IMG/VR virus record: IMGVR_UViG_3300025010_000009 | Coordinates: 4,776 to 68,775 of that record | DNA from: a virus | Length of the DNA stretch: 64,000 nt | Direction: 5' to 3' (one strand) | Part shown: positions 14,844 through 64,000 of the stretch, one piece after another | Position numbering within the stretch: position 1 is the stretch's first letter | Layout: every line of letters starts with the position of its first letter | The notes under the pieces: model-generated | What the model saw: only the letters and a program-made list of their open reading frames with translations | Told to the model about the DNA's origin: nothing | The model's database searches: none | Made by a program: the position numbers and the translations under genes

Positions 14844-15521
14844 GTGGCCTTAACTGATAGACTGCAATTAATATCAAATAGTTTAGTGGGTGGAAATATT
14901 GTTTCTGTCCTAACTAGACAGGCTATCAGGTTAAATGCCCTTGGTAGTGCAGCAGCTTTTGCTCTGCGTAAAAGTCAATTATACACCCAGGCTCAGGCAT
15001 ATATTCCCCCGGCTATTTTTGTGGCCGGTATCCCAGTATCAGCCAGGATGCAGGAGGCTTACACCTTTCAATCTGATATTTCCCAGCATCCTGTTGAGTC
15101 CGGTGCGCCCGTAACTGACCATGTACTCCTGCACCCATTACGAATAAATTTATCATTTGAAATCAGTAATTGGCGTAAGGGTGATGCTGAATATAGTTTA
15201 TCTCTTTTTGAACTTATGTGGCAACAACGTGTTCTTGTTGAGCTATTGACGGAGCATAAGAAAATACCTGATATGGTTCTTATTCATTTTGAGGCCGCAA
15301 ACACAACACCTGTATGGGGTAGACTTGAATGTCGGGCAACCTTTCAACAGGTAAAATTAGTTGAACTTGAAACAGCTCCATACCCAGAGGAAAAGGTCAC
15401 CCCCACTGAAAATACAGGAGGGGAGGATGTATCAAAAAGCGCAGAATCCCCAGTGGATCAGGGACAACAAACCCCGCAGGATAAATCAGGGTTAACAAAT
15501 TTATTGGATTTGTTCAGATGA
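14844..15521 (+). CDS. Baseplate/tube-initiator (Dit-like) protein
   Basis: ISQHPVESGAPVTDH motif. Confidence 0.75.
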   Translation: MALTDRLQLISNSLVGGNIVSVLTRQAIRLNALGSAAAFALRKSQLYTQAQAYIPPAIFVAGIPVSARMQEAYTFQSDISQHPVESGAPVTDHVLLHPLRINLSFEISNWRKGDAEYSLSLFELMWQQRVLVELLTEHKKIPDMVLIHFEAANTTPVWGRLECRATFQQVKLVELETAPYPEEKVTPTENTGGEDVSKSAESPVDQGQQTPQDKSGLTNLLDLFR

Positions 15522-17850: not shown

Positions 17851-19071
17851 ATGACTGAATTTGGAATAAATGAGACTGGTTTTAACCTGAAGCGTCTGGC
17901 AGATATTCTTGCTGATATGAAGACTGCTTTATCTACTGTAACAGATCCAATTACAGGTGAAAGCCTTACTCCTGATTTACTTGATGAAAATGATCCACTT
18001 ATTCAATTGGTCAATACCTTTAGTGATACCCTGGCCTTAGGTTGGGAGCAACTTCAACTTGCATATAATCAATTTGATCCCCTAAAGGCTACGGGGGCTG
18101 GCCTATCTGGATTGGTACAGCTTAATAAGCTATCTCGTCAGGCAGGTAGTAAGTCAACAGTAGTCTTGACCTTGACTGGTACTGTTGACAAATCTGTTCC
18201 TGCGGGCAAGATTGTTACTGATATGAATTCTACCTATAATTGGGTTCTACCCGCATTTACATTTGATGGCGCTGGTGAGGCTACTGTTACAGCAACGGCT
18301 TCAGAATATGGGCCATCAACAGCATTAGCTGGCACTCTCGTTAAAATTGTAACCCCGTATTCAGGTTGGACCTCAGTTACAAATGCTGCTGATGCCATAG
18401 TAGGTACAGATGAAGAGACGGATTCAGAGTTAAGAACTCGACAACAGGATAGCACTGCAACAGGTGGAGCTACTATTGAAAGTATTTACACTGCACTTTT
18501 AGCACTTGATGGGGTCACCTATGCGCACGTATACCAGAATATAACTGATGTTGTAGATTCTCGGGGAATACCTGCTCATCAGGTTGCTGTTGTTATTTTA
18601 GGCGGTGATGACGGAGAGATAGCAGATGTCCTCTTTAACCATATGCCTGCTGGGGTATCTACATATGGTACTTCCTCAGATACTGTAACAGATACCCAGG
18701 GCATTACCTATACCTATTATTTTACTCGGCCTGCTGAGATTGATATATATATTGATATTGAGGTTGAAGTTGTTGACACTTCTCTCTGGCCGGATGATGG
18801 GGATGATCAAATTAAGGCCGCAATTCTGGCTTATGCTGTTTATGGTCGGGATGGACTGGGTATCCCGGCCGGATTTGACCCTGATGGATACCCCCCTGGG
18901 CAGAGCGTTTACGCCAGTGAACAATATACTCCAATTAATAGTATTCAGGGACATAGGGTTGTATCTGTTTATGTAGATACAACTCCAAGTCCAGCAGCGG
19001 TGTCTGTTAGTATTGATTGGAATGAAATTGCAGTATTTGATGCCGCGAATATAAATATTACAGTGAGTTAA
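17851..19071 (+). CDS. Baseplate J-like wedge protein
   Basis: GTDEETDSELRTR motif; 406 aa. Confidence 0.9.
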   Translation: MTEFGINETGFNLKRLADILADMKTALSTVTDPITGESLTPDLLDENDPLIQLVNTFSDTLALGWEQLQLAYNQFDPLKATGAGLSGLVQLNKLSRQAGSKSTVVLTLTGTVDKSVPAGKIVTDMNSTYNWVLPAFTFDGAGEATVTATASEYGPSTALAGTLVKIVTPYSGWTSVTNAADAIVGTDEETDSELRTRQQDSTATGGATIESIYTALLALDGVTYAHVYQNITDVVDSRGIPAHQVAVVILGGDDGEIADVLFNHMPAGVSTYGTSSDTVTDTQGITYTYYFTRPAEIDIYIDIEVEVVDTSLWPDDGDDQIKAAILAYAVYGRDGLGIPAGFDPDGYPPGQSVYASEQYTPINSIQGHRVVSVYVDTTPSPAAVSVSIDWNEIAVFDAANINITVS

Positions 19072-19073
19072 TC

Positions 19074-19865
19074 ATGACATTTCAATCTGTAGAATTTCCA
19101 GAAATTGATATTGAAACCAGGGCATTGAGTAGGGTTTTACTACAATTCCGAAAGTCTCCGGTATTCCTCCAGGTATTGGAGGCCATGATGTCTGAATTAA
19201 CAGCATTTGTAACAGCTGTACAACAGGTAATGGAATATCGTACGTGCGCAAATGCTGAGGGGGAAAATCTTGATGTACTGGGGCGGATTGTTGGACAATT
19301 TCGAGAGTTAATTAATTATGATGTAATTACCTGGTTTACCCCTGATGCAGAGTATGCCCTGCTTAATCAAGCTCCTATATGGGTTACAAATGCACCACTT
19401 GCAGAGAGTTTTGAGGCTGATGATTTTTGGTTCCGGCAACTCATTGAGGGTAAGATTGCTCGAAATTTTGTTCAGTACGGAAGTGTACCTGAAATACAGG
19501 ATATGGTAAAACGAGCACTTGGCCTTGATATAAGTATTGTTAATGTGGTTGGTAATCCCCTTACGGTATTAATCATTGTGCCTGATAATACATCATTAAA
19601 TAATCTATTGCTATTGCAGAGAGTAGGTAATAACGCAACAGTTGATAGCGTATTTTTCTTACCCCTTCCTGCTGGAGTACAGATAGCGCAGGTAATCTAT
19701 TGGTCTGATTATTTCTCATCTTGGGGTACTACTTCAGATTGGTCAGACGTTGGGGATTGGAGTGATACTGGGGATTGGAGTGATACTGGGGATTGGAGTG
19801 ATACTGGGGATATTGAGGCCCTTGATTTTGATGGTCGTGGGGCAATTTTGCCCGGCATAGGATAA
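19074..19865 (+). CDS. Baseplate wedge protein (DUF2612-like) with C-terminal WSDTGD repeats
   Basis: AEGENLDVLGRIVG, PLPAGV. Confidence 0.8.
   Translation: MTFQSVEFPEIDIETRALSRVLLQFRKSPVFLQVLEAMMSELTAFVTAVQQVMEYRTCANAEGENLDVLGRIVGQFRELINYDVITWFTPDAEYALLNQAPIWVTNAPLAESFEADDFWFRQLIEGKIARNFVQYGSVPEIQDMVKRALGLDISIVNVVGNPLTVLIIVPDNTSLNNLLLLQRVGNNATVDSVFFLPLPAGVQIAQVIYWSDYFSSWGTTSDWSDVGDWSDTGDWSDTGDWSDTGDIEALDFDGRGAILPGIG
19737..19811 (+). repeat. 18-bp tandem repeat x4 (DWSD[VT]G)
   Basis: GATTGGAGTGATACTGGG units; the first copy is degenerate. Confidence 0.95.
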
Positions 19866-19873
19866 TTTGGAGG

Positions 19874-20389
19874 ATGATTATGTGGCTTAAAAGATTTCAA
19901 AATTGGTTACCTGTTATACTCTTAACTGTATTTTTTGCACCCCCTGCATTTGGTGCCGGGAGTTGTACCCCTTCCTGGGCTTATCAGGGAGCACTCAGCC
20001 ATCAATTACTATTTGATTGTACTGGAGATGCTGTTGATGGTTCAATTCCTGATATTGAAATGGGGGATGCTGCTTTTGCGCTCTTACAGGGACATAGGCT
20101 TGAGTTTGTTTCAGCCTGGCCAGTATCAGGTGGTACTGCCCCGGATGCTGCTGATGTTTTTGTATTTGATGTTTATGGTGAGGATCTGTTAGGTAGTCCT
20201 GATGGTGGAACTACTGCTGGGCAGGGGGCTAATCTTATTGACCCTGATTATAAGCAAACAACTCAACCCTTCCCAAATAAGGGTGTTGGTCCAAATTTTC
20301 CGATCATTACACATAAGTATACACTGCGAGTTACTGGACAAGCTACTGCCAGTGCACGTTATTATGTGATGCTTGGATTTGCTAAATAA
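19874..20389 (+). CDS. Hypothetical beta-rich protein with signal-peptide-like N-terminus
   Basis: KR + hydrophobic core + AFG-A; lies between wedge and fibre genes. Confidence 0.6.
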   Translation: MIMWLKRFQNWLPVILLTVFFAPPAFGAGSCTPSWAYQGALSHQLLFDCTGDAVDGSIPDIEMGDAAFALLQGHRLEFVSAWPVSGGTAPDAADVFVFDVYGEDLLGSPDGGTTAGQGANLIDPDYKQTTQPFPNKGVGPNFPIITHKYTLRVTGQATASARYYVMLGFAK

Positions 20390-20401: not shown

Positions 20402-21241
20402 ATGGCAGATAGAACTGATTCCCTAAATGGTTGGATTTGGGCTACTGGTGCGGGTGATCCCCCTGCAGTACCTGTAACGGGCGTTACATACGCTACGTCT
20501 ACCCTTTCTCAAACAGTGGTAGAAACAGGTTGGCCATATAATCAGATTGCTAACGGTGCAGATTTTAATGAGGTAATGAGAAGAATTACCTCATTAATTG
20601 AAAACATTGAAAAATATGGAGTTTTGACCTGGTGTCCTACTATTACCTATCAAACAGGGGCGATGGTAATTGCCTCAAATGATATTGCGTATAGGGCTGT
20701 TCAATCTAATCTGAATCAAGACCCTATATCAGATACAACGGGCACATATTGGGAAAGACTTTATGGTGATATTGGTCGTATAGGCATCTTCCCCCTTGAA
20801 ACTGCTCCGGTAGGTTGGCTTGAATGTAATGGTGCAGCAGTTAGTCGTACTACTTATTCTGCTCTTTTTTCCATTATTGGTACTACACATGGGGCTGGTA
20901 ATGGCTCAACTACATTCAATATTCCTGATTACCGTGGGCGTTTTCTACGTGGTTGGGATCATGGTCTTGGCCTGGACCCTGATGCTGCTAGTCGTACAAA
21001 TCGTGGCGATGGCACATCTGGGGATCACGTGGGTACAAAACAAGCTGATCAATATGAATCACATGCCCATCAAAATCAAAGTCTTGGCTCTGCCAATAAC
21101 GTGACAACAGCTGCTGGAGTTGATGATGCTGCATATGTTGATGATGCTGCATTCACAAATGCTCTTAATACCCAGGTTTCAGGTGGTAATGAAACCCGAC
21201 CGGTAAATATAAATGTAATGTTTTGTATTAAATACAGATAA
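20402..21241 (+). CDS. Tail fibre protein with tail-collar domain
   Basis: APVGWLECNGAAVSRTTYSALF, FNIPDYRGRFLRG, ETRPVNI...CIKY. Confidence 0.9.
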   Translation: MADRTDSLNGWIWATGAGDPPAVPVTGVTYATSTLSQTVVETGWPYNQIANGADFNEVMRRITSLIENIEKYGVLTWCPTITYQTGAMVIASNDIAYRAVQSNLNQDPISDTTGTYWERLYGDIGRIGIFPLETAPVGWLECNGAAVSRTTYSALFSIIGTTHGAGNGSTTFNIPDYRGRFLRGWDHGLGLDPDAASRTNRGDGTSGDHVGTKQADQYESHAHQNQSLGSANNVTTAAGVDDAAYVDDAAFTNALNTQVSGGNETRPVNINVMFCIKYR

Positions 21242-27162: not shown

Positions 27163-28299
27163 TTAATACCTTGGTTTGCGATCTAGTGCTCGTTTGATAT
27201 CATCTTCCCGGTTATCCCAGGCTCGTTGGACAAGGCGTTTTAGCTTATCAATTTTACCACTATTCTCAACTGCACGAGTAAGATTTGCCCACCCCTGTTC
27301 CCGTAAATCAAATTCAGGGGCATCCACCCAGGAGCCCTTGATTTCCCAGACCTTTTGTTCCCGGAGAAAATCCACCATGGACCCGATGTCATCAATACCA
27401 AGTTCATTATAGATTGAAAACCGGATATTTCTTAATTTGCCGGTGGTACTATTCTTATCCATAATGACTTCAGTATCAGTACCAACCTCACACCCACATT
27501 CCTTTCTGATGCCCACCCTAGTCATAAATGGTCTGACCTGGCTATAAAAATAAGGGCCTTCCCCACCATTGGTAGTCCACTTGCGTTCAAAAGGTTTGGC
27601 ATCAATTTTCTGTTTAAGTTGTTGGGTAATGATGAGTAGACTTTTAGTATTAGCGATAAGACCATTTACATTACGAAGAATCCGGTGAATTATACCAGCT
27701 TTGCGCGCAGCATGCGCCTGGGCAACTTTATCAGCAGCATCTTTACTCTTAGCGGCTGCAACAGCTTTAAGCAATTCCTTTGCAACCTCCTCATCAGTGG
27801 AGAAGCTGTCAAGACTATCAGCAACATAAATAAAGGGTTGCCCCTTCTTTGCCAAGGTAGTGAGGGTGATTTCCATATCCTCAATGGTATTACTGATACC
27901 GGATTTATCCTCATTTCCGCGCAAATCTGCATAGAGCAGACCACTGGGGGTAATCAACCGGCTTGTTAACGGGGAGAAAAGTTTGTCAAGATTAAAATCG
28001 CACCGGCGTTCAACATCATCATAGATAAGTAGATAGTTATCAAATCTGGGGTCAAGGCAGGCTTCAGCAAAGGTAGAGAGCACAAGTACTGTTTTACCAG
28101 CAGTACTCTTGCCCGGTAGGGTATTTATTTTGCCCATAGGCCACCCGCCATCAATACGGTCAGTCATAGCCAGGTTAAGCATAGTGCTTCCAGTGGGGAG
28201 GAAAAAGCCCTCTTTCCGGGTCTTTGGCGGCGGTTTGGGCACAGCACGTTGTCTTACCCGTTGCTCAACCTGCTCTACTACTCGTTGTCTTTCAGTCAT
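27163..28299 (-). CDS. RecA/UvsX-like recombinase
   Basis: PTGS...GGWPMG, Walker A GKSTAGKT, VADS, TNGG. Confidence 0.9.
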   Translation of the reverse strand: MTERQRVVEQVEQRVRQRAVPKPPPKTRKEGFFLPTGSTMLNLAMTDRIDGGWPMGKINTLPGKSTAGKTVLVLSTFAEACLDPRFDNYLLIYDDVERRCDFNLDKLFSPLTSRLITPSGLLYADLRGNEDKSGISNTIEDMEITLTTLAKKGQPFIYVADSLDSFSTDEEVAKELLKAVAAAKSKDAADKVAQAHAARKAGIIHRILRNVNGLIANTKSLLIITQQLKQKIDAKPFERKWTTNGGEGPYFYSQVRPFMTRVGIRKECGCEVGTDTEVIMDKNSTTGKLRNIRFSIYNELGIDDIGSMVDFLREQKVWEIKGSWVDAPEFDLREQGWANLTRAVENSGKIDKLKRLVQRAWDNREDDIKRALDRKPRY

Positions 28300-28486
28300 A
28301 AATTTTCTCCAGACCGTGTTTATCAACTAGGTAATGACCCCACTTACCATTCGGTTGTTTGTAGATATTATGTTTTTTAATCAGTTTGTAAAATGTTGGC
28401 TTGGTCAGGGTTACATTATACTTCTCTTTGAGAAAAGCTAATGCATCCTCTGTCCTTACCCAATCTGGTTTTTGTTTTACTGACAT
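28292..28486 (-). CDS. Small winged-HTH (excisionase/MerR-like) protein
   Basis: TEDALAFL...LTKPTFYKLIK...GHYLV pattern. Confidence 0.55.
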   Translation of the reverse strand: MSVKQKPDWVRTEDALAFLKEKYNVTLTKPTFYKLIKKHNIYKQPNGKWGHYLVDKHGLEKIYD

Positions 28487-39851: not shown

Positions 39852-40796
39852 TTAAATAATTGATTCAAAATATTCAATTGTTTTATTAAGCCCATAAATA
39901 ATATCAACTTTAGGCTCCCAGTCAAGAAGTTCTTTTGCCCTAGTTATATCCGGTTTCCTCTGCCTTGGGTCATCAACCGGGAGTTGTACATACTTAATCT
40001 TTGATTTTGTATCAATAAGGGAAAGGACTAAATACGCAAGTTCTCCGATATTATATTCTAAAGGATTTCCAAGATTAATAGGTCCAGTAATACCTTCATC
40101 TGAGTCCATTAACCTTATAAACCCATCAATCATATCATCTACATAACAAAAGGACCGGGTTTGACTTCCATCCCCATAAATTGTAATATCCTTTCCCTGT
40201 AGGGCCTGGACTATAAAATTTGAGACTACACGACCATCATCAGGATGCATTTTTGGACCGTAGGTATTGAAAATACGAGCTACCTTTATTTTTACCCCAT
40301 GCTGTCGGTGGTAATCAAACATTAAAGATTCAGCAGCACGTTTACCCTCATCATAACAGGATCTGGGCCCATTTGGGTTTACCCTTCCCCAATATGTTTC
40401 AGGTTGGGGGTGTACCTCAGGGTCACCGTATACTTCACTTGTTGAGGCCTGAAATATTTTTGCTCCAGTTCTCTTAGCAAGACCGAGCATATTAATAATT
40501 CCTAAAATTGATGTCTTTATTGTCTGAACAGGATCATGTTGGTAATGAATTGGGGATGCAGGGCAAGCAAGATTATAAATTTCATCTACTTCAATATAGA
40601 GAGGAAAGCAGAGATCATGACGAATAAATTCAAATTTATTATTTTGGAAAAGATGTTGTATATTTTCCTTAGTACCAGTAAAGCAGTTATCAACACAAAT
40701 AACCTCATTACCTTGAGAAAGTAATACCCCACATAAATGAGAGCCAAGAAAACCTGCTCCACCAGTTACTAAGATTCGTTTCATGTTTTTTACCAA
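39852..40796 (-). CDS. uxs: UDP-glucuronate decarboxylase (UDP-xylose synthase)
   Basis: [49 protein letters not shown]. Confidence 0.92.
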
Positions 40797-53344: not shown

Positions 53345-54079
53345 ATGAGAGAAATAGTCAGAGAAAGAGTTAAACCCCTACCCCAATCAGAACAGCAGGG
53401 ACATGCTCCAAGACAACGTCAACGTCAACGTCAAAGGGTTAATCCCTCGGTTAATCCCTCGGTTAATCCCTCGGTTAATCCCTCGGTTAATCCCCCGGCC
53501 AATACCCCTGATACATATGAGTTTGAGCACGCGGCCAAGAGAAATACTAAGGGTCAGTTTGGTCAAGGTAATTGCCTTTGGAAATTTGTAAATCCCGGGA
53601 GACCTCGTATATTTGAGACCCCTGAAGCTATGTGGGCTAAGGCCTGTGAATATTTTAAATACCAACAAGATAATCCCTGGCGGGAACAGCGTATAGCAAG
53701 TAAAAGGGGAGAACCTGATATTGTTGAACTTGATAAACCAGTGCCATTTACCCTAGAGGGCTTTCGGTTGTTCTCAAATATAACTGAGGGATGTTGGCAC
53801 GCTTATCAATTGAGAACCGAATATGTAAAAGTCTGTAGGCAAATCATGGAAGTTATAAGGAATCAGAAGTTTGCTGGCGCGGCAGCAGGCTTTTTTAATC
53901 ACGCTATCATAGCTAGGGATCTTGGCCTTGCGGATAAGAAGGAATTGACTGGTGTAGATAATACCCCGCTTATACCCCCGGAGCAGGGTGATAACCGGGC
54001 AAAGAATATGCGGGCTATGATGTTGGCTGCTCTGGCGGTAGACGCTGACGCTGATAGTGAGGAAGAGTCTGGTGGTTGA
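53345..54079 (+). CDS. terS: Terminase small subunit (P22 gp3-like)
   Basis: GRPRIFETPE, PFTLEG, NHAIIARDLGLADK. Confidence 0.85.
   Translation: MREIVRERVKPLPQSEQQGHAPRQRQRQRQRVNPSVNPSVNPSVNPSVNPPANTPDTYEFEHAAKRNTKGQFGQGNCLWKFVNPGRPRIFETPEAMWAKACEYFKYQQDNPWREQRIASKRGEPDIVELDKPVPFTLEGFRLFSNITEGCWHAYQLRTEYVKVCRQIMEVIRNQKFAGAAAGFFNHAIIARDLGLADKKELTGVDNTPLIPPEQGDNRAKNMRAMMLAALAVDADADSEEESGG
53414..53497 (+). repeat. (CAACGT)x3 and (GTTAATCCCTCG)x~5 tandem repeats in terS
   Basis: Encode QRQRQR and VNPS repeats. Confidence 0.95.
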
Positions 54080-54281
54080 CCTTGAGTGTATTCCCGTATC
54101 AGATTACTCCTGCTTTCTGGATAGTGTGGGCGTAATGGACGCTACTGATTGGGAAATATTGCGTAAAATGGTCAGGGAAAGTGATTTTGTATATATCTGT
54201 GAACGAAATCAATATACAGGTCATCACTATTTTATCCACTTCCTTCCCCTAGTAAGCAAGGGCCAGGGGTATATAAAATGA
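54057..54281 (+). CDS. Hypothetical small protein
   Basis: Fills the gap between terS and terL. Confidence 0.4.
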   Translation: MRKSLVVDLECIPVSDYSCFLDSVGVMDATDWEILRKMVRESDFVYICERNQYTGHHYFIHFLPLVSKGQGYIK

Positions 54282-55837
54282 GTACTGGGGGTCAATATCT
54301 TCCCAGTCTGATTGAATTCTGGAGGATAAAACGGAAACACCAGGGGTTGCCCTGTATTATTAAGCCGTTTCATTATGATCTGGCAAATGCATATACTAAG
54401 TTGCTCTTAGGGGTACTACCCCGGCCTAACCTGATGGTCTTGGAACCCCCTAGGTGTTTGAAGACAAGTCTTTGTGATACGTTTATTGAGTACGCTCTTT
54501 CATATTTTCCGGATAGTGAGTTCATTAAGGCTGGATTTGGTAAGGAATTACCTGTAGAGAGCGTGATTGATATTCGTAATACACTTTCAAGTGATTGGTA
54601 TCGGAGCATGGTAGATGATCAGTGGGGTTGCCATGTTCAGATGATTGGTGAGAAAGCAGGTGGTCGTCAGGACCACTTTTATACCCTGGAGGGTGGTAGC
54701 GTTAAGGCCGGTGGCGTTGGCACGGGTATTATCGGTTTCGGAGCTGGTAAGTTAAGGCCTGAATTTGGCGGGGCTATCGTAATGGATGACCTTCTTAAAC
54801 CCCAGGATATGCGCTCTGCAGTGGTGAGGAAGGCTACCTGGGATTATGTACAGAATGGCCTTAAACCCCGGAGAAACCGGCAGAGTCCTCCATATACGCC
54901 CATTATTCTCATAATGCAGAGACTCCACCCGGAAGATCCTGCTGGAATGTGCCTGAGGGAAGAACGTGATGACTGGTATGTGGTGTGCGTACCGGCACAT
55001 AATCCTGATGGTACGAGTATTTGGGAGGAAAGGATCTCAGCTGCTGAGCTTGAGAAGATGCGGGCGCGGGACCCGGAAAAGTATTATAGTCAGTACCAGC
55101 AGAACCCAAAAGCAGGTGCGGGTGTAATACTCCAGGGGCAATGGTGGTACCACTGGCAGGACCGGCTTGAGATGGAAAGAAGATTTACCCTCAAGTTCAT
55201 TACTGCTGATACTGCGTTTAAGGCCCAGGATGCTAATGACTGGAGTGTATTTCAATGCTGGGGGTGTGAGGGTAAACAGGGCTTACACCTTGTTGATCAA
55301 ATAAGGGGAAAATGGGAATTCCCTGAACTTCTGAAGTATGCCAAGGCATTTTGGCTTAAACACCGAACACCCCGGCGTGGATATACCCCGGCAGCACATT
55401 TCTTCATTGAGGACAAGGCAAGTGGTATCAGTCTTATCCAGAGTATGCAGCGTCAGGGTATCCCGGTAATACCCTGGGCACCGGCTGATAATACTAGCCC
55501 TGATAAGGTGGGACGTGCTAAACAGGCAAGTGATCCTCTTGCTACAGGTAGGATAAGCCTTCCACCACTAGATGCTCGACAGGATCTTAAATGGAGAGAT
55601 TTACCCCCGGCGTTTAAGCGGGAGTACCCCCGGCCTGATACCTTTGAGGATTTGCCTGATATTAAGTGGGTACAATGCCTAAAGGATGAGGCTGAGAGTT
55701 TTTCAACTGATGACAGTCATCTTTTTGATGACCAGGTTGATACATTTACTGAGGCTGCTTGTATTTGGATGGAGAATGGTGGGGGTGTAGGACCCCTGCC
55801 CAATATGAGTGGACTTATACAAATTAATGAACAATAG
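54278..55837 (+). CDS. terL: Terminase large subunit
   Basis: PPRCLKT, IVMDD, IMQRLH, QYQQNP, TADTA, IEDKASG, DDQVD. Confidence 0.92.
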   Translation: MSTGGQYLPSLIEFWRIKRKHQGLPCIIKPFHYDLANAYTKLLLGVLPRPNLMVLEPPRCLKTSLCDTFIEYALSYFPDSEFIKAGFGKELPVESVIDIRNTLSSDWYRSMVDDQWGCHVQMIGEKAGGRQDHFYTLEGGSVKAGGVGTGIIGFGAGKLRPEFGGAIVMDDLLKPQDMRSAVVRKATWDYVQNGLKPRRNRQSPPYTPIILIMQRLHPEDPAGMCLREERDDWYVVCVPAHNPDGTSIWEERISAAELEKMRARDPEKYYSQYQQNPKAGAGVILQGQWWYHWQDRLEMERRFTLKFITADTAFKAQDANDWSVFQCWGCEGKQGLHLVDQIRGKWEFPELLKYAKAFWLKHRTPRRGYTPAAHFFIEDKASGISLIQSMQRQGIPVIPWAPADNTSPDKVGRAKQASDPLATGRISLPPLDARQDLKWRDLPPAFKREYPRPDTFEDLPDIKWVQCLKDEAESFSTDDSHLFDDQVDTFTEAACIWMENGGGVGPLPNMSGLIQINEQ

Positions 55838-55845
55838 GATTATAT

Positions 55846-56046
55846 ATGTATAGTCTTGTCGTTAATTTACAATTATGTGTTGGTTGTGGGAATTGTACTG
55901 ATATTTTTCGTGATCGTTATACTACACTCCTGAGCCGGGGGGAACTCTTGCTTGATGATCTTACTGATAAGGATAAGGAATTAATTGAGTACGCTGTAAA
56001 CCAATGTTATGTTGATGCCCTTTTATTTAAGGAGATTGCAAAATGA
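55846..56046 (+). CDS. Single-cluster ferredoxin-like protein
   Basis: CVGCGNC plus distal C (CYVDAL). Confidence 0.7.
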   Translation: MYSLVVNLQLCVGCGNCTDIFRDRYTTLLSRGELLLDDLTDKDKELIEYAVNQCYVDALLFKEIAK

Positions 56047-56252
56047 GTTTTAAGCCCATGACACATAGGAAATCTATTATAATCGCTCTGGTTGTAATAG
56101 CTGAGACTGCGTTGGTATTGTCCGGCCTTGCTCTTTTCCGGGCTGACCTGGATAAGACAATCCTGCTTGCCCTTATTGGCGTGGCATCAAATATTGTGTC
56201 CGTACTGGCTGGGGTATATATCGGTAAGACAAAAGAGGATACCCCAGCGTGA
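56043..56252 (+). CDS. Two-TM small protein (holin-like)
   Basis: Two hydrophobic helices and a charged C-terminus. Confidence 0.55.
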   Translation: MSFKPMTHRKSIIIALVVIAETALVLSGLALFRADLDKTILLALIGVASNIVSVLAGVYIGKTKEDTPA

Positions 56253-57721
56253 AAAAGAAACTCTTTATACTAGCTTTGTTTCTCTGCCTGCCTTCTGTTG
56301 GGTGGGCTGCAGTATATTACCATGATCCTGATTGCGCAGAAAATGGGAATGGGCTTTCTTTCGCGTGTGCAGAAACTCCAGGCGGTGCAGGGGCTTTCAA
56401 TACTACCTCTGGCGTCACATACTCAGGGGCTAATTGGTATTTATTTAAAGCTGGTTCAACTATGTCTGCCGCCTATGTAGATATTTCTGCTGGTGGGACC
56501 TCGGCATCAGATAGGTTAACCATTGGGAGCTACACAACGGGTGGGGTGATCACAACATCAAAAGCCGTTCTTGATGGTTTCGGCAATGGGCAGACCAGAG
56601 TAATAAATTCAACCAATAAGTATTACTGGACTATCCAGGATCTTGAAATTGTCTATGACGATGAATTAACGCAAGATAATCGTATAGGGATCGCGTGCCC
56701 GTCATCAGGAGGAACAGTTAGTACTGATTACGACAACATCATCCAGAGGGTATACGTTCACGATATACTAATAGACGAGTCTGCTGGTAATTATGCAAAC
56801 GGGATTCGCTCTGTTAGCAATGGAGGATTGCAAATTATAGACACCGCCATAGATAATATATCGAGTGATGACTTTTATGGTGGTGGTGATAATTTGCAAA
56901 TTATCAGGCCAAATTTTTCAGGATCTGGGCAAGGGTCTTTGGTGACAGGTGATGAAATTCAGCTAACCACTGGTACTGGATGGTTAGTACAGGGCGGGAC
57001 ACTTACTCATCCCCAGCATGACGAGAAGAATACTTTCAACGCTGCTTCTACTGCTGGGGCCGGAGTGATCGAGGACGTCACGTTGAATTGTTATGAGGGA
57101 GAGGCATTAGCAGCTTACTGCTGTTATATCCAAGCTCCAGGTACAGTTGCCAGAAGATTAAAAATAAAGGGCAGCGGCATAGTTGGTCCTGTATTTTTTT
57201 CGGCGTCATCTACTGGCGGCGAATTCTATGATAACTATGTTATTGCGACTCAGGCAGCAGACCGGGGTGCATATGTTTTCGCAAATGACGTAAGCATGCT
57301 CAATAACACATTCGTTTATAATGGAAGTGGCGCTTCAACTGGTTATGGAATTCATGAACCTGTGACCATTACAGGTGGAATTCAAACCAATAATATTATC
57401 TCTGGATTTTCAACAGGTATCCGCAGCACAAATAGCACAGATAGCTACAATGATATTCACGGGGTTACGTCAGACTGTACAAATTCTGACGGTACAGCAA
57501 GAGATTGTGGGACAGGGACAATAACCTCTGACCCGCTTCTCGATAGCCAAGGACACCCGGCTTTGAATTCCCCAGTTATTAATGCTGGGGCTGATGTGGG
57601 TTTACCCTTTTGGGGTACTGCTCCTGAGATTGGTGCTTTTGAAGTTGGGGGGTACCCAGTTAAAGTCAATAACTTACCATACCTGATGCCAATTTGGCGG
57701 ATGGGCGTAGGTGTACAGTAA
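56249..57721 (+). CDS. Right-handed beta-helix protein with signal peptide
   Basis: KKK + hydrophobic + GWA-A; NNTF/NNII turns; DPLL...SPVINAG...PEIGAFE tail. Confidence 0.75.
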   Translation: MKKKLFILALFLCLPSVGWAAVYYHDPDCAENGNGLSFACAETPGGAGAFNTTSGVTYSGANWYLFKAGSTMSAAYVDISAGGTSASDRLTIGSYTTGGVITTSKAVLDGFGNGQTRVINSTNKYYWTIQDLEIVYDDELTQDNRIGIACPSSGGTVSTDYDNIIQRVYVHDILIDESAGNYANGIRSVSNGGLQIIDTAIDNISSDDFYGGGDNLQIIRPNFSGSGQGSLVTGDEIQLTTGTGWLVQGGTLTHPQHDEKNTFNAASTAGAGVIEDVTLNCYEGEALAAYCCYIQAPGTVARRLKIKGSGIVGPVFFSASSTGGEFYDNYVIATQAADRGAYVFANDVSMLNNTFVYNGSGASTGYGIHEPVTITGGIQTNNIISGFSTGIRSTNSTDSYNDIHGVTSDCTNSDGTARDCGTGTITSDPLLDSQGHPALNSPVINAGADVGLPFWGTAPEIGAFEVGGYPVKVNNLPYLMPIWRMGVGVQ

Positions 57722-57749
57722 TAAATTAGAGAAAAGAGAGGAGAAGGTA

Positions 57750-58172
57750 ATGTCACGACTGATATGGTTAAAAACAATAGCACTATGGTTGGGTATAGCT
57801 GGGTGTTTACTCCCCCTGTTCTCATGTGATGTCCTGGCTGCTCCGTCATATAAGTCAGGGCAGGCTGCTGCAACGGGTGCAGTAAATTATACCTTTACTG
57901 CTGAGGATGAATCTTGGGTGCAGGAAGTTCGCCTTCACCTTGGAGCCGTGGGACAGGCCGGTAATCTAGTTATTTTTGTGGACCGGGTAACTGGACCCTC
58001 TTATGATGTTGTTTATGTTACTCAGGACATGACCTCAACCCAGAATTTTGTATACCAGCCGGTAAGTCCTATAGTGCTCCAGGCTGGGGATGCCCTACGT
58101 GTTACCTGGGTAAATGCAAGTAATATTGGCTATGGTCTTGAGGTTGTTTACACTAAGGGGTGGACACGATGA
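57750..58172 (+). CDS. Small beta-sandwich protein with signal peptide
   Basis: Hydrophobic N-terminus ending VLA-A; PIVLQAGDALRV. Confidence 0.65.
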   Translation: MSRLIWLKTIALWLGIAGCLLPLFSCDVLAAPSYKSGQAAATGAVNYTFTAEDESWVQEVRLHLGAVGQAGNLVIFVDRVTGPSYDVVYVTQDMTSTQNFVYQPVSPIVLQAGDALRVTWVNASNIGYGLEVVYTKGWTR

Positions 58173-59812
58173 AAAGCGGTATAACCTTTTTAATCCTATT
58201 GACCTGGTTGATCCTCTTCCCGGTTATAGGCCAGGGTGCTGTTCTTGTTAATGGTGTGGATCAATCTGGGGGTGACCTCCATTTTGTAGCCCTGTCATCT
58301 TGCGTGGGTATAACTGATGGAGTGTGTTATAATCTTACAGATCATAAACTGTATCAATGGAATGGCCTGGCAGTAGTTGAATTTACAGGTACAGGTGATA
58401 ACCTTGGGACGTCAACGTATGAAACAGTACGTGAGCTTTGGGGGGCTGGTACAGGGTTTTTACTTACGGACGGGACAGTTAAGGCTGAATCAGCTATCTC
58501 TATTACTACAGATCAAATTACTGACTTACCTACCTATTTAGATTATGCGGATATTGTAGCTCTATGGGCAGCAGGGACGGGGTTGCTTAAAACAGATGGC
58601 ACAATTGATGCGAGTGTTTATCTTACTGCTGAGGCTGATCCTGTATTTCTGGCATGGGATAAAGATTATACTGATCTGATTAATACCCCTACTATTCCGG
58701 CAGCTTCCACGGATTTATCTGATACTGCTGATCTATTACGTACAACTGATATTGGGGTGAGTGTACAGACTCCTCTTGTTGCTGGGACTGATTATCTCGC
58801 TCCTGATGGAGACGGAAGCGGGCTGAGCGGGGTGGGCGACATCACCGGAGTTCTTGGGGATGTAACAGGAGATGTTCCAGTTCTTTATCAAACATATTCA
58901 GCATTCACCGGGTCTGATGCGACCCCAGACGTGTCAACCAGTAGCCACTGGAAAACGGTTGACACCACAACGATAACTACATTTGACGGGACTCCGGTTG
59001 ATGGTCAGCACTTATGGGTAAGGTGTGATGCTGCAACCGTGTTTGATCTGACAAGTTCCGGTATTGTGTCAGTGAACAGAACCAGTGATTTTACTTGTGC
59101 CGCAAATACCATTCTGCATTTCATCTATGATGGCACCAGCGCAAAGTGGATCGCTACGAACATGCCGACTACGGCGGATCAGATTTCAACAACTGGACTG
59201 GTTTACTACACATCTGGAGTTGGTTTTTCTAGCACCGCTACCCCTCCGCTTGGGATTCCAGCAGATTCTACAGTGGCAACTATTTTCGGAAGGGATGCGA
59301 ATAATAATTTGACATTGGGGGTTTCTGGAACCAGCACAAATACATTCTGGAAAGGTAATGACTCAGCCACAAACGGGGACACAACGCAGGCATGGTCTGC
59401 TGATAAGGTGTACGATCAGTTGGCACTCAAACAGGACAAGTCCACTTTCCCGGTAGATTTCTGTGTGGCTATCAGCGACGAAGCAACAGACCTGACCGCT
59501 GGGGCAGCGAAAGTAACTTTCCGTGCACCATATGCTTTTACGTTGACTTCTTTGCGAGCCTCTGTGAATACGGCCCCGGTAGGGTCAACCATTATCATCG
59601 ATGTGAATGAGGCGGGAACCACATTGATGACCACAAATAAACTGTCTATTGATGCCTCAGAGTTGACCAGTGTGACAGCAGCAACGGCCCATACTTTGAC
59701 GGATACTGCCATTGCTGACGATGCGCTGATGACAGCCGATATTGATCAGATTGGAAGCTCAACAGCAGGTAAGGGGGCAAAGATATGTTTGTACGGTACG
59801 CGGGAACTTTAA
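58169..59812 (+). CDS. Fibre-like structural protein with signal peptide
   Basis: Thr/Gly/Asp-rich; YLTAEADPVF, WSADKV, C-terminal IDQIGSSTAGKGAK. Confidence 0.7.
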   Translation: MKSGITFLILLTWLILFPVIGQGAVLVNGVDQSGGDLHFVALSSCVGITDGVCYNLTDHKLYQWNGLAVVEFTGTGDNLGTSTYETVRELWGAGTGFLLTDGTVKAESAISITTDQITDLPTYLDYADIVALWAAGTGLLKTDGTIDASVYLTAEADPVFLAWDKDYTDLINTPTIPAASTDLSDTADLLRTTDIGVSVQTPLVAGTDYLAPDGDGSGLSGVGDITGVLGDVTGDVPVLYQTYSAFTGSDATPDVSTSSHWKTVDTTTITTFDGTPVDGQHLWVRCDAATVFDLTSSGIVSVNRTSDFTCAANTILHFIYDGTSAKWIATNMPTTADQISTTGLVYYTSGVGFSSTATPPLGIPADSTVATIFGRDANNNLTLGVSGTSTNTFWKGNDSATNGDTTQAWSADKVYDQLALKQDKSTFPVDFCVAISDEATDLTAGAAKVTFRAPYAFTLTSLRASVNTAPVGSTIIIDVNEAGTTLMTTNKLSIDASELTSVTAATAHTLTDTAIADDALMTADIDQIGSSTAGKGAKICLYGTREL

Positions 59813-60372
59813 TATTTTTACTTAGTTTGTGCTTGAATTGTTATGCATCAGATTGGCTGCTTAATTCTTATACATTTAATACCGAGGCAGGATGCACTAC
59901 GGGGCAAACCATTATTGGCGACGCCGCCACAACTAATAATTATGGGTTGTCGAATAATTTAATATATTTTGTTCGCAAAACGGCAGCAAAATCATGTAAT
60001 TTGGCTACGATAGTTACCCATTTTTCTGATGCCGGTTCTACAACAACTTTTCGTTCTGCTATATATGCTGATAATGGATCTGGTACAGCACCGACAGGAG
60101 ATCCCTTAGGGTATACAGCGCAGTGTAATACTACAGCTGGCGATGGCAACCCGGAGGATGCGGATTGTGCATTAGGTTCGGCTGTCAGTCTCACCGCATC
60201 AACATATTATTGGATGGGGACAATAGCCAATAACACTACAGGAGTTTATTATGGCACTACTTCTGCAAATGGCTATATGTCATGGGCGTATAGCCCGACA
60301 GATCCGTTCCCGACAATAGCATCATTTTCCGCGTGGAATAAAGACTGGTCATTAAGTGGAGAAAGTGAATGA
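59785..60372 (+). CDS. Beta-rich fibre-tip-like protein with signal peptide
   Basis: Hydrophobic N-terminus ending CYA-S; AIYADNG..P, LTASTYYW. Confidence 0.65.
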   Translation: MFVRYAGTLIFLLSLCLNCYASDWLLNSYTFNTEAGCTTGQTIIGDAATTNNYGLSNNLIYFVRKTAAKSCNLATIVTHFSDAGSTTTFRSAIYADNGSGTAPTGDPLGYTAQCNTTAGDGNPEDADCALGSAVSLTASTYYWMGTIANNTTGVYYGTTSANGYMSWAYSPTDPFPTIASFSAWNKDWSLSGESE

Positions 60373-63227
60373 AAAGATTAACGTTATTTTTTCTTTTTTT
60401 GCTAACTTATGTTAATTTTGCCTTTGGCAGTACAATTACTTTAGTAATAAAAGATAGTTCTGGAGTTGATAGAACAAGCAAATACGTATCGTATGGAATT
60501 CCTCTTAGCATGTCTGATAATGCCGTGTCTATTTCAACATTTAAAATATCTACCGATGAGGCGGGGACTTCTATTATTGACGCCCAGTTCAACATAATTT
60601 CTCGGTATGATCTAGATGGAGACGGCTGGGAAGAAACAGAGCCTATCCGTACAGTTCTTTTAACTTTTCCAGCTACCGTATCAGCTAATATGTCATCTAC
60701 ATATTATTTTCATACTACTGACGGGAGTGGAAATGTTGCTGGTGATAATTTAGCAGATAACTCAAATGAGGCATACTGCGCTATTAATGCAAGTTCACTA
60801 TTGTTACATGTTAAAAAGACAGCAGGATTTAACCTTTTTGATCAAGTGACGGTAGATTCCACAGACATTGTTTCGTCTCCTGCCACGGATGGAATTATCC
60901 TCACTTCAGATAACGGTGGTGAAACCGCTGTTGATTACACAAGTTTCTCAAGCAATAACGCGCCAACAGTCTCAATTGTTTACAATGGTCCATTGATGGC
61001 GGTTGTCAAGGTGGCAGGTCATCTTGAGGACTCAAGCAATAACACTTTAATTCCGAGTGGGGAGAATCCGTCTGCGGTTAACCCTATATCATATGCAGTA
61101 TGGTATACTCTTTTTAAAGATGAAAGATATATTAAGGTTGATTTCAGGATTAAAAACGAAAATCCAGGGGCTGCAGGATATGAGACAACTACAAACAGAA
61201 ATATAGAAATAGCGAATCTTTACCTTAAAACTACTCTTGCTGGACTTGGAACAGTTACAGAAATTGATTTTTCAGACTGGTCTGATTTGACCAGTCCGTC
61301 AGGTGTGTACGATATTGAACAAGATCATTGTTTGCCTGGTGCGTGTGCTCAAGCGTCTGAATCGGATGCGGAAGCAATTCCAAACTTTAACTATTATATC
61401 AAATCTGATGTTAGTGGAACTCCTAATACTGAGTACACAGGAAGACGTTTTGACTCATATTCGCAGATACGTGATTCGGATAGGGGGTTGATAGTTGCTG
61501 GCCGGTGGTGTTGGCAGAATTGGCCGTTTACAATCAAAGAAGATGCAACAAACAAAATAACCGAAGTGCATTTACTGCCAAACACTGGAACAGACCATAT
61601 TTTAATGGGAGCTGCATGGAAAACATGGCAATTGATTTACGATTTTCATGCAGATGTTGCTTCTGACTATACATTTGATTCTGAACTAGCACAATTGAAA
61701 TACCCTTTCGTTATTTTCCCAAGTAATTTAACAACATCAAATTTTTTCGGTGAACGTTTAGGACCGGCAAGTTTGACTACGTCGATTACATATTCAGGCG
61801 GGGAATCGTTAGACGATGCAATAACAAACCAACAAAATTCTATCAGGGCACAATTTGATTCTACGTATTCCACCAATGAGTCTATGTTGTATGATATATT
61901 TGATTTAATGGAGTCAAGGCCAAAGACCTCTACTACTGGCATATATAATGGCCCAATCGACTGGTACGGGTGGCAACATTGGGGTGATTTAGTTAGAGAT
62001 GAACTTGGATTTGGTGCTTTGAATTATGATTGGAACTATTTCGCTTCCGCATTTGGGAATTGTTTTCAGGATTTAGCAATGGTATATGAGGGTGATGCGA
62101 TGAGTTTGCGTACCGCAGATTCATTAATATTGCATCAACCTATAAACGACACAACAACAATTAATACATCTGGCGCAACAGTTCGTGATTTGCATGGCGG
62201 GTCCCGGGATGAATATAATGCAACATGCGAGGGTACTTCATTTTTAACTGGGTTTCAGAATAATGGATGCGTAACAAATAAACATCAACATTTAATTGGT
62301 CTCATATTTAATTATATTTTGACAGGAGATGATAAGTTATTTGATGGACTAAAAGATGCTGGAGATTTTATTAGACACAATTATAGTTCAATTGCCCCTG
62401 ATCATGGTGTATTTGATGGAGCAACCTCTGTTCCAGAAAAAAGATGTGATTTAGGAACATGTACATATTATAATACAGTAGAAACACGTCAATTTTCAAG
62501 AAGTATTGAATATGCGTCGTTATTGTATCAATCTACTGGAGATACTGATTATTTAACATTAGCTAAAAAAATATTTGAAAATGCTTTATTGCAAAATGAG
62601 GATGCTGGTGGTGGATCTTTAGGATCTGACAGCGGGTCTGTTTATGTTTGGTATACTGATCAGGCATTACGTCCAGCTATTGCTTTGTATAATTTATTAT
62701 ATGAGGTTGGTGATTCATATAAATCTAGCGTATCTGCATGGTTACTTCGTCTTGTTTCTTGGTATGATAATGTTTTTGACAACTATCTGCTAGCGCAACC
62801 TGGATACGGAACAGGAGAGAATGAGGGGAAATACTTAGCGTATACACAGGGAGCCGAGTTAATTTCTGGTGCATTCTCCGGTTTATGGCATCCTGAATAT
62901 ATTACTGAGGTTGCTGACTTATATGCGTTTGCATATTTAGTAACAAATGAACAAGAATATTTGGATAGGGCAGCAAGAATGTTTACTGATAAATGGTTTT
63001 ATGCCGGTCAAAATACCTATGAGACTATTAATAATATTGTTGAGGCGGCATATGCGAATGATGGTCCTGCGGGCGGGGATGCATGGTTAAAAGAGGGAAT
63101 TTCTTTAATGGGTGGAAATTATTTTTTATGGGTCAAAGGACGAAGCCCCTTAGTCAGAAAAATAAATGGCGCAAACGGCCACATGCCAATATCAGCAGAA
63201 GGAAAAACATTTGAGGCGGTGCAATAA
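60369..63227 (+). CDS. Large signal-peptide protein, possible polysaccharide lyase/depolymerase (beta-sandwiches + alpha/alpha barrel)
   Basis: MKR + hydrophobic + AFG-S; VSYGIPL, NGPL, WQNWP, YGWQHWGD, YILTGD, YQSTGDTDYL resemble exo-rhamnogalacturonan-lyase-like proteins. Confidence 0.6.
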   Translation: MKRLTLFFLFLLTYVNFAFGSTITLVIKDSSGVDRTSKYVSYGIPLSMSDNAVSISTFKISTDEAGTSIIDAQFNIISRYDLDGDGWEETEPIRTVLLTFPATVSANMSSTYYFHTTDGSGNVAGDNLADNSNEAYCAINASSLLLHVKKTAGFNLFDQVTVDSTDIVSSPATDGIILTSDNGGETAVDYTSFSSNNAPTVSIVYNGPLMAVVKVAGHLEDSSNNTLIPSGENPSAVNPISYAVWYTLFKDERYIKVDFRIKNENPGAAGYETTTNRNIEIANLYLKTTLAGLGTVTEIDFSDWSDLTSPSGVYDIEQDHCLPGACAQASESDAEAIPNFNYYIKSDVSGTPNTEYTGRRFDSYSQIRDSDRGLIVAGRWCWQNWPFTIKEDATNKITEVHLLPNTGTDHILMGAAWKTWQLIYDFHADVASDYTFDSELAQLKYPFVIFPSNLTTSNFFGERLGPASLTTSITYSGGESLDDAITNQQNSIRAQFDSTYSTNESMLYDIFDLMESRPKTSTTGIYNGPIDWYGWQHWGDLVRDELGFGALNYDWNYFASAFGNCFQDLAMVYEGDAMSLRTADSLILHQPINDTTTINTSGATVRDLHGGSRDEYNATCEGTSFLTGFQNNGCVTNKHQHLIGLIFNYILTGDDKLFDGLKDAGDFIRHNYSSIAPDHGVFDGATSVPEKRCDLGTCTYYNTVETRQFSRSIEYASLLYQSTGDTDYLTLAKKIFENALLQNEDAGGGSLGSDSGSVYVWYTDQALRPAIALYNLLYEVGDSYKSSVSAWLLRLVSWYDNVFDNYLLAQPGYGTGENEGKYLAYTQGAELISGAFSGLWHPEYITEVADLYAFAYLVTNEQEYLDRAARMFTDKWFYAGQNTYETINNIVEAAYANDGPAGGDAWLKEGISLMGGNYFLWVKGRSPLVRKINGANGHMPISAEGKTFEAVQ

Positions 63228-63462: not shown

Positions 63463-64000
63463 ATGAGCAAGCGTATACGTATAAGAGTCAATAATGCTGG
63501 GTTTACTGATCTAGCAGGTGGCCCTCTTGGTACAGGGGATCGGGGTGCATATAGCTCCCTCCCTGTTTATACAGGTAATCCATATGAGAGTAATGATTAT
63601 GTTTTCCGTTGGCGACAATATGTACACTTATATGAGACCAGTTGGGAAGCCCGGAAAATTATTCGGATCATCCCTGAGGATGCTCTGCGTAAAAAATGGG
63701 TTGCTGAAGACATCCCGGAACAGATGGCAAAACGGATTGATTCCAGGCTGGACCAGCTTCAATTCCTATCAGTTCTGAAGCGTAGTCTCATGCTTGAACG
63801 CTTGCTGGGTGGTTGTCTAACCTTTCTAGGTCTTGATGCGCAAAAGGATGAGCCTGAAAAGGTATTTCACCCCAGGGATGGGCAGGCCCTGCGGTTTTTG
63901 AATGCTGTACCTATAAGTCGTATTGCACGCATCCGGTGGTGTAATGACCCCCTGAGTGAACACTACATGCGGCCTGAGTCATTCCTGGTCAATAGTAATG
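63463..64000 (+). CDS. Portal protein (DUF1073-like), runs off the window end
   Basis: MSKRIRIRV...LYETSWEARKIIRIIPEDALRKKW...ERLLGG; open to the end; absent from the ORF track. Confidence 0.85.
   Translation, partial: MSKRIRIRVNNAGFTDLAGGPLGTGDRGAYSSLPVYTGNPYESNDYVFRWRQYVHLYETSWEARKIIRIIPEDALRKKWVAEDIPEQMAKRIDSRLDQLQFLSVLKRSLMLERLLGGCLTFLGLDAQKDEPEKVFHPRDGQALRFLNAVPISRIARIRWCNDPLSEHYMRPESFLVNSN

Follow-up and report, generated by a model that had tools for sequence, protein, structure and literature searches.

Phage depolymerases are usually viewed as parts of the virion or as cytoplasmic proteins that are released at lysis. The virion-borne depolymerases and tailspikes, such as the P22 tailspike, the K1F endosialidase and the Klebsiella phage depolymerases, are signal-less, carry an N-terminal particle-binding domain and are encoded in tail modules. 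In bacteria, periplasmic or secreted glycanases such as AlgL, PslG, PelA and BcsZ are encoded within exopolysaccharide operons. In this work we analysed a stretch of 64,000 nucleotides (nt) of viral DNA, hereafter the window (positions 4,776 to 68,775 of the IMG/VR record IMGVR_UViG_3300025010_000009), and we describe in it a cassette of five consecutive genes, P1 to P5 (56249-63227, + strand), which lies between the large terminase gene terL and the portal gene and whose predicted products all begin with signal-like N-termini. The cassette shares with the virion-borne depolymerases likely glycan-cutting and glycan-binding folds, including the matches of the P3 mid-domain and tip, but it differs from them in that every member is signal-like, in its position between terL and portal, and in that P1 and P5 lack relatives among deposited phages. 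We propose, at about an even chance, that P1-P5 are a late-expressed, Sec-exported set that binds and degrades envelope polysaccharide instead of being assembled into virions in the cytoplasm.

Carbohydrate enzymes of phages with export signals have been published before, and so have NosD-like beta-helices close to terminases, as passages of two papers indicate. The passages of PMC13452462 describe NosD-like beta-helix genes in sediment-derived viruses, many of them near terminases, and report a SignalP-predicted signal for one that stands next to a dockerin; the roles put forward there are adhesion, lysis or matrix breakdown. Our cassette has a similar terminase-near setting and subsurface or sediment origin, with P1 likened to these proteins via its Atlas neighbours only, but those passages describe no runs of several signal-bearing genes. 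In the passages of PMC13507307, SignalP signals are reported in 3261 of 64,678 (5%) prophage carbohydrate-active enzymes (CAZymes), so that export of phage-borne glycan enzymes is already an existing idea. Those are single soil-prophage genes, treated there as auxiliary metabolic genes of carbon cycling, whereas here a five-gene, all-signal block stands in a late operon of a phage with no integrase found among the open reading frames (ORFs) examined. The library of literature searched described neither an all-signal multi-gene late block nor signal-bearing fibre or tailspike-like proteins.

Seven + strand ORFs lie between terL and the portal gene: a CxxCxxC ORF of 66 amino acids (aa; 55846-56046), a membrane protein of 69 aa (56043-56252), P1 (56249-57721; 490 aa), P2 (57711-58172; 153 aa, probably 140 aa from Met14 at 57750), P3 (58160-59812; 550 aa, probably from Met4 at 58169), P4 (59785-60372; 195 aa) and P5 (60369-63227; 952 aa). 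From terL through P5, neighbouring genes overlap or sit 8 nt apart, and a 235-nt gap then precedes the portal gene. P1 has a GTG start, which is overlapped by the stop of the 69-aa ORF and has the sequence AAGAGGA 9 nt upstream. A scan for promoters and terminators gave no excess over shuffled sequence (28 found against 27.2 expected, and 11 against 8.3), and we therefore claim no transcription-unit boundaries. Nothing above threshold was found for P1-P4 in Pfam, PHROGs or NCBIfam.

Signal-like N-termini were called with a crude heuristic of our own, which scores the charge of the n-region, an uncharged hydrophobic stretch (h-region of ~8-18 residues) and small residues at positions -3 and -1, all within the first ~35 residues; P2 was scored from its internal Met14 and P3 from Met4. 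Eleven of the 99 called ORFs were positive, and six of these, the 69-aa ORF with two transmembrane (TM) segments and P1-P5, are consecutive. A run of at least five arose in 108 of 200,000 shuffles of the flags, i.e., it is rare by chance. The original prediction had stated that five consecutive ORFs between terL and portal start in this manner, and both the coordinates and the heuristic bear it out. The scores were 8.17 for P1, 7.53 for P2 (Met14), 6.29 for P3 (Met4), 4.87 for P4 and 6.28 for P5, with predicted signal peptidase I sites at GWA/A in P1, VIG/Q (or GQG/A) in P3, CYA/S in P4 and AFG/S in P5. The N-terminus of P1 reads MKKKLFILALFLCLPSVGWA and is followed by A, that of P5 reads MKRLTLFFLFLLTYVNFAFG and is followed by S, and that of P4 ends in LCLNCYA/S; by eye, the putative signals of P1, P3, P4 and P5 look canonical. 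In P2 a regular expression based on a PROSITE-type lipobox rule, which asks for a basic n-region and an uncharged stretch ahead of a Cys at about residues 15-35, found a lipobox-like IAGC (LGIAG/C), beside a good signal peptidase I site, VLA/AP. The residues after the Cys stay hydrophobic, which is atypical for a lipoprotein, and judging from its N-terminal residues P2 could be cleaved by signal peptidase I or II.

These N-termini recur in the relatives of the cassette proteins. Five of six full-length homologues of P1 (48-77% identity) are signal-like and the sixth, P0010, begins within the hydrophobic stretch; the P1 copies on contigs L001-L003 have signal-like N-termini as well. Of six P5 homologues, four of them close (37-43% identity) and two phage-borne and more remote (28-32%), five are signal-like (P0002, P0003, P0005 and the copies on L004 and L005), and P0004 has a longer N-terminus that is lipoprotein-like by eye. 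A hydrophobic N-terminus thus persists in family members whose identity has fallen to 28-77%. As a background, 80 IMG/VR loci drawn for an unrelated reason contained no signal run longer than two, with 52 of 1099 ORFs signal-like; ORFs in the compared loci were called by a simple procedure of our own. Within the window, the tail collar fibre of the baseplate operon (20402-21241, 279 aa) is signal-less.

The AlphaFold2 (AF2) model of P5, built with 7 sequences, has a mean predicted local distance difference test score (pLDDT) of 58 and a predicted template-modelling score (pTM) of 0.68, and shows a beta-rich half (~22-430) and an alpha-helical half (~480-935). The best Foldseek match in the PDB, over the full length, was the PL26 exo-rhamnogalacturonan lyase of Penicillium chrysogenum (5xq3/5xqg), with an E-value of 4e-14, a template-modelling score of 0.46-0.54, ~1090 aligned columns and ~11-12% identity. 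According to this model, P5 is predicted to have a PL26 (PcRGLX)-like lyase fold whose three-part architecture is superposable on 5xq3. The P5 model aligns with PcRGLX over its whole length and has the beta-rich half ahead of the alpha-helical one, but P5 is only distantly related by identity and has no PcRGLX match of its own above threshold; its GH127_cat match (1.1e-4) is below the cutoff, and PcRGLX_2nd was matched in two of five close relatives (3.1e-8). PcRGLX itself is fungal and acts on pectin. The family alignment of P5 has conserved charged and aromatic columns. C321 and C326 are both present in three of seven sequences and absent as Cys in the other four, so that the two come and go together, and C693 and C698 are Cys in five and four of the seven, respectively. 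A search of BFVD with the P5 model returned one unnamed, moderate viral match (E 6e-6).

A profile search with P5 against 1.84 billion representatives gave 2442 hits at E<=0.001 and 262 at 1e-30. Signal-like N-termini were found in 95 of the 145 listed hits examined and in 86 of 123 full-length ones (seven proteins of the query alignment excluded). Many family members end in sorting or dockerin-like tails, judged by eye as dockerin or type IX secretion system (T9SS) tails. Nine of 48 pattern matches in species-representative genomes encode P5 relatives; four of the nine are Desulfobacterota, and two of these four copies (L009 and L011) are signal-like. In Desulfotignum (L010) the P5 relative is flanked by two GT4 genes, a Polysacc_synt_3 flippase, Wzy_C, a sulfotransferase and a UDP-GlcNAc 2-epimerase, and in Desulfobulbus (L007) by GT4s and an asparagine synthase. 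Since its relatives are mostly signal-bearing and, in two genomes, found in such loci, P5 would be a member of an exported enzyme family that accompanies Wzx/Wzy-type polysaccharide synthesis. Like AlgL, PslG, PelA and BcsZ, to which we liken them by gene setting alone, the P5 relatives of L007 and L010 stand inside synthesis loci, whereas the P5 gene itself lies in a phage late block with no synthesis machinery beside it. The closest P5 relative in the genome collection (44% identity) is on L006 (LBQR01000050.1, 5.9 kb), where it adjoins a signal-like ORF of 188 aa; this contig was binned to a metagenome-assembled genome of Candidatus Moranbacteria and may be a phage fragment binned with a genome of the candidate phyla radiation.

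P3 is a mosaic composed of the signal, an N-module to ~150, Thr/Gly/Asp-rich linkers, a mid-domain at ~244-337 and a C-terminal jelly-roll at ~418-550, and its Cys pair is invariant in three of three aligned sequences. In its AF2 model (62 sequences) pLDDT exceeds 90 in the mid and C-terminal domains. The C-terminal domain resembles the tail fibre tip of Agrobacterium phage 7-7-1 (9rkv_M 464-583; Z 9.6, root-mean-square deviation 3.0, 115 aa), and the mid-domain resembles 6o38_A (Z 9.1) and the tailspike depolymerase 24qj_A (Z 7.0). Further matches of the jelly-roll are to CBM6/36 and TNF/C1q folds at Z 6-8, from which it follows that the fold class of the tip is a common one. By sequence match and modelled fold together, the C-terminal domain is predicted to be a phage fibre-tip jelly-roll. 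It occurs in at least 564 copies in IMG/VR and in eight deposited phage records, including a 'virion structural protein'. When the 110 homologues of P3 were sorted by the modules they share with it, signal-like N-termini were found in two of two with the N-module (to ~150) only, in 12 of 15 with the mid-module (~223-358) only, in four of four with the mid-module and the C-terminal domain, in 19 of 88 with the C-terminal domain only, and in one further homologue (1/1). The C-terminal domain is thus carried by 92 of the 110 (the 88 and the four), and many signal-less proteins that share only this domain bear collagen-like or other fibre features. Two proteins with other distal parts carry the post-signal N-module at 82% and 65% identity; a search of IMG/VR with the N-module (alignment A7) found none. 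Repeated motifs of the type LW(G/A)AGTG(F/L)L(L/K)TDGT were seen in the linker at ~90-190 of P3 (window ~58430-58730), and a chromosomal protein on a 6.09-Mb contig (P0027) matches this stretch three times.

The remaining bodies give leads only. The Atlas neighbours of P1, obtained by a language-model neighbour search, are Pel9A-like, DUF1565 and NosD beta-helix clusters (0.95-0.97), and the body of P1 may accordingly be taken as a putative right-handed beta-helix. A profile search of the PDB sequences with the P1 family alignment (A1) found no match, and alignment A2 gave one chance-level match. The A1 family found none in the genome contig collection, P1 was present in none of five genomes that carry P5 relatives, and neither P1 nor P5 has a relative in 50,697 deposited phage records. 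The original prediction had pointed to closely spaced Cys pairs in these proteins, and all the pairs it quoted are present; in P1, C29/C40 and C410/C420 are invariant in seven of seven aligned family members. The C-terminal ~65 aa of P1 are found again, with little change, on P0013 and P0014, whose bodies are unrelated to it. For one of these two and for a homologue of the P3 N-module the longest contig has the same length, 33,984 bases, and the two may thus lie on one contig. P2 has a small body with no Cys and a weak choice-of-anchor R match (0.031, below the cutoff). P4 has a small body with four Cys; the clusters nearest to it in the Atlas are mostly viral, one is 55% DUF4082, and the structural neighbours are lectin-like. 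As leads, P2 and P4 may be small lectin-like proteins.

A survey of related phages, which the original prediction had suggested, showed that signal runs recur with differing contents. L004, an IMG/VR contig of 56.5 kb, has a portal of the SU10 type (2.4e-136) and a terL different from the one found here; between these two genes stand five signal-like ORFs in a row, one of them a P5 relative, and after this run come small membrane ORFs and one that is lipoprotein-like. On L101, a 9-kb metagenome contig, a P1 relative is followed by three signal-like ORFs without BLAST match to P2-P5, one of which has a Laminin_G_3 match (6.7e-6) just short of the cutoff. L001 has a P1 relative two genes downstream of a terL from another PHROG family; L005 has a signal-like ORF of 463 aa, a P5 relative, a 78-aa ORF and then a GH108 endolysin (7e-20); and on L104 a P1 relative stands beside another signal-like ORF and a DDE transposase. 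An all-against-all phmmer comparison of the cassette proteins with the ORFs of L001-L005 found no relation beyond P1 and P5. Signal-bearing runs near terL therefore recur in unrelated phage contigs with different contents.

We favour export of the cassette proteins because of the conserved signals, the kinship and locus context of P5, the lectin-like, CBM-like and fibre-tip-like domains, the signal-less tail fibre, and the variable contents of runs in which the signals stay constant. A series of observations weighs against it. The signal calls come from a crude heuristic with false positives, for instance a Rossmann-fold enzyme (39852-40796) that scores 4.99 against 4.87 for P4, so that the P4 signal depends on reading its N-terminus by eye. 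Most proteins that carry the P3 C-terminal domain are signal-less, both among the homologues with this domain only (69 of 88) and among the best 80 of at least 564 IMG/VR loci, where, of 76 bearers with a complete N-terminus, 68 have no signal and eight are signal-like, although two of these calls are doubtful. The bearer in Synechococcus phage S-CRM01 (51% identity) is annotated as 'tail fiber protein'. The P5 model is of low confidence, with 343 of 952 residues at pLDDT below 50. The putative beta-helix of P1 comes from a language-model neighbour search only, and Pfam beta-helix families matched none of the seven P1 family members. The P3 N-module and the P1 C-terminal stretch are kept beside swapped bodies, which is the pattern expected of docking modules and makes a larger assembly, perhaps the virion itself, possible. 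Finally, the window ORFs scanned against PHROGs yielded neither an endolysin nor a spanin, and for this phage the link to lysis is therefore conjecture.

The sequence of events that we propose would be as follows. P1-P5 would be translated together with terS and terL from one tightly coupled + strand block, and a signal of ~20-23 aa at the N-terminus would target each pre-protein, P2 possibly as a lipoprotein, so that folding would take place outside the cytoplasm, in a setting that allows disulfides between the paired cysteines. P5, with its PL26-like fold, and P1, as a putative beta-helix, would cut capsule or exopolysaccharide, which the P3 jelly-roll and tailspike-like mid-domain and the bodies of P2 and P4 would bind. 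The glycan layer would be thinned from inside before and at lysis, so that progeny would not be trapped and the receptor on the dying cell and on debris would be destroyed; lysis would then free the folded proteins as soluble depolymerases. In this scheme we infer actual export and signal cleavage, enzyme activity and its substrate, the timing of expression and the benefit to the phage.

As host-modifying adhesins or matrix remodellers, P1-P5 would alter how infected cells stick to neighbouring cells or to surfaces and would aid the persistence of host and phage, with no role in release. The viral NosD-like proteins have adhesion among their proposed roles in the passages of PMC13452462, the Atlas neighbours of P1 include NosD and Beta_helix clusters, some P5-family members have dockerin- or T9SS-like tails by eye, and P2 and P4 weakly resemble lectin-like or choice-of-anchor domains. 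We nevertheless judge this role unlikely, since the genes are packed in the terS-terL late block and are not a separate moron, with no promoter or terminator signal above shuffles; the non-exhaustive look for an integrase among the ORFs examined found none; and the fold of P5, together with its conserved charged and aromatic columns, points to an enzyme.

We assign a similarly low probability to the proposal that P1-P5 are lysis accessories that breach the envelope by removing a sheath, S-layer glycan or capsule beyond the reach of the holin, endolysin and spanin, with the 69-aa two-TM protein as the holin. This protein (score 8.38 plus one further TM segment) has a C-terminal tail KTKEDTPA, is translationally coupled to P1 and would be holin-like in size and topology only; it had no match above threshold in Pfam, PHROGs or NCBIfam, including the holin families, and no endolysin adjoins it. 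The 66-aa ORF beside it has Fer4-type matches that are sub-threshold (best 0.0013), and both ORFs are found unchanged (100% identity) on L106, a separate contig of 1.4 kb. The P5 relative two ORFs upstream of the GH108 endolysin on L005 and the small membrane and lipoprotein-like ORFs after the run on L004 would suit a lysis role, and Sec-exported lysis proteins of phages are known, such as the T4 antiholin RI (PMC8385771). On the other hand, neither the cassette nor the window ORFs scanned against PHROGs include a recognisable endolysin or spanin, and the sole lysis-type trace among these ORFs is a secondary endolysin-family match (phrog_1517) in a tail/LysM-type ORF (14844-15521). The proposal also overlaps with the glycan-directed export that we favour, from which it differs only in the purpose of the target layer, and our evidence does not separate the lysis-accessory and host-adhesion roles.

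The original prediction had favoured another route, in which folding of P1-P5 in the periplasm would be followed, once the envelope breaks down, by attachment to completed particles as disulfide-stabilised fibres and depolymerases. Of the bodies that it described as resembling virion appendages, P3 has a predicted fibre-tip domain and P5 a predicted lyase fold, and the P1 beta-helix is a lead without Pfam support. The P3 tip and the tailspike-depolymerase-like mid-domain would fit such a route, as would the conservation of the P3 N-module and P1 C-terminal stretch on other bodies, which is typical of attachment modules, the location of the genes in the late packaging and head block, and the shortness of the recognised tail fibre (279 aa). 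However, Pfam, PHROGs and NCBIfam recognised no virion-binding domain in P1-P5, and only the P3 C-terminal domain has virion-annotated relatives. The signal-like starts and terL-portal position of P1, P3 and P5 are not those of virion-attached fibres and tailspikes, and P1 and P5 are without kin in the deposited phages. Moreover, the P5 kin are bacterial, mostly signal-bearing by the heuristic and, in two genomes, within polysaccharide-synthesis loci, and the contents of the runs vary between related phages while the signals stay. We know of no tailed phage that assembles parts across the inner membrane. Export-dependent virion assembly thus found no direct support, in view of the signal-less collar fibre, the bacterial kin of P5 and the varying contents, and we consider it quite improbable; the alternative that the original prediction had offered, a cell-surface or matrix-degrading apparatus, fits the evidence better.

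A related idea is modular assembly outside the cytoplasm, in which the P3 N-module and P1 C-terminal stretch would dock exchangeable glycan-cutting and glycan-binding bodies, with periplasmic disulfides, to be loaded on virions at lysis or freed as a depolymerase complex. This is doubtful in our estimation. If true, it would be a route of virion-accessory maturation across the inner membrane, not known for tailed phages, and the interest of the cassette would be high only if this docking or the virion reading were true. Lastly, an assembly chimera or passenger bacterial DNA with no phage role is very improbable, since, although the P5 family is overwhelmingly bacterial and the P1 relative on L104 stands beside a transposase, terL to P5 are tightly packed on the same strand, the GC content of the block resembles that of the rest of the contig, the terL/66-aa/69-aa/P1 junction was found again with 100% identity on L106, the identical sequences of P1 and P5 occur on 12 and 14 contigs, respectively, and other phage contigs have comparable runs next to terL.

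The phage that carries the cassette is, by its gene content, a predicted myovirus. The first 127 bases of the 68,775-base contig are identical to the last 127 (window 63873-63999), and this terminal overlap indicates a circular assembly of ~68.6 kb. The packaging and late block that reaches into the cassette begins on the + strand with terS (53345-54079; phrog_606, 2.5e-36), followed by terL (54278-55837, +; phrog_38, 1.1e-72), which is 37% identical to terL of Idiomarinaceae phage 1N2-2. The N-terminus of terS has a run of RQ dipeptides and then five VNPS-type repeats. The N-terminus of the portal protein (63463-63999, +; PF06381, 1.4e-16; phrog_146) continues over the junction, as the ORF reads through into the contig start; with 699 aa in total it is long, with a C-terminal extension of unassigned kind. 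The major head protein (660-1616; phrog_264, 1e-49), the tail sheath (9546-11078; phrog_205, 1.5e-69), Baseplate_J (17851-19071; 1.1e-18), a DUF2612 baseplate gene (19074-19865; 8.6e-11) and the tail collar fibre (PF07484, 3.1e-24; phrog_523, 4.5e-39) were also recognised. A candidate integrase at 27163-28326 (- strand, 387 aa) was rejected, being RecA-like (E ~1e-18 to single-copy RecA chains). A tRNA scan of the contig found no genes, and a scan of IMG/VR with terL as a single protein found no match. A search for the major capsid protein in 401 genomes of one phylum (that of G001) gave only four matches, at 24-30% identity, and because these are few and distant we infer no host. The source sample was possibly groundwater, as four DNA rows from one study are labelled 'groundwater metagenome'.

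Sugar-modifying genes form a cluster at 2515-6993 of the window, within the head-tail block. They comprise a methyltransferase (4120-4782; PF13649, 5.6e-13), a sulfotransferase and HAD-like protein (4749-5780; PF03567, 1.1e-15), an ORF with phrog_7999 and weak Stealth_CR2 matches (5780-6511), two unassigned ORFs (2515-3522 and 3512-4144) and a phrog_3108 ORF (6496-6993). The Rossmann-fold enzyme at 39852-40796 (- strand) is a homologue of UDP-glucuronate decarboxylase (UDP-xylose synthase), with E 5e-125 to human UXS1 structures, and represents a nucleotide-sugar auxiliary gene in the early/replication arm. Judged from their predicted products, these sugar genes are consistent with a phage that engages host surface glycan.

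Exported lipoproteins of phages, namely T5 Llp, Cor and Ltp, are encoded beside receptor-binding genes. Ltp is described in PMC3952083. A 171-aa ORF of the baseplate operon (19874-20389, +), flanked by the DUF2612 baseplate gene upstream and the tail collar fibre gene downstream, resembles them in its small size, in its signal- and lipobox-like N-terminus (AFG/AGS-C; AGSC by regular expression) and in immediately preceding a tail fibre gene. Its score of 6.22 agrees with the earlier statement that this ORF, too, starts with a signal-like sequence. It differs from Llp, Cor and Ltp in having no family match (Pfam, PHROGs, NCBIfam), and one marginal tblastn match, to Methanosarcina virus MetMV, was obtained (E 5e-3).

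Taken as a secreted set, the cassette suggests that some environmental phages may export a tool-kit against the capsule or matrix of their host before the burst. If true, this would bear on how progeny escape from biofilm or slime, on the destruction of receptors on infected cells, and on how viral carbohydrate-enzyme genes in metagenomes are to be read. Cassettes of this kind could also supply disulfide-stabilised, secretion-competent enzymes for the degradation of polysaccharides.

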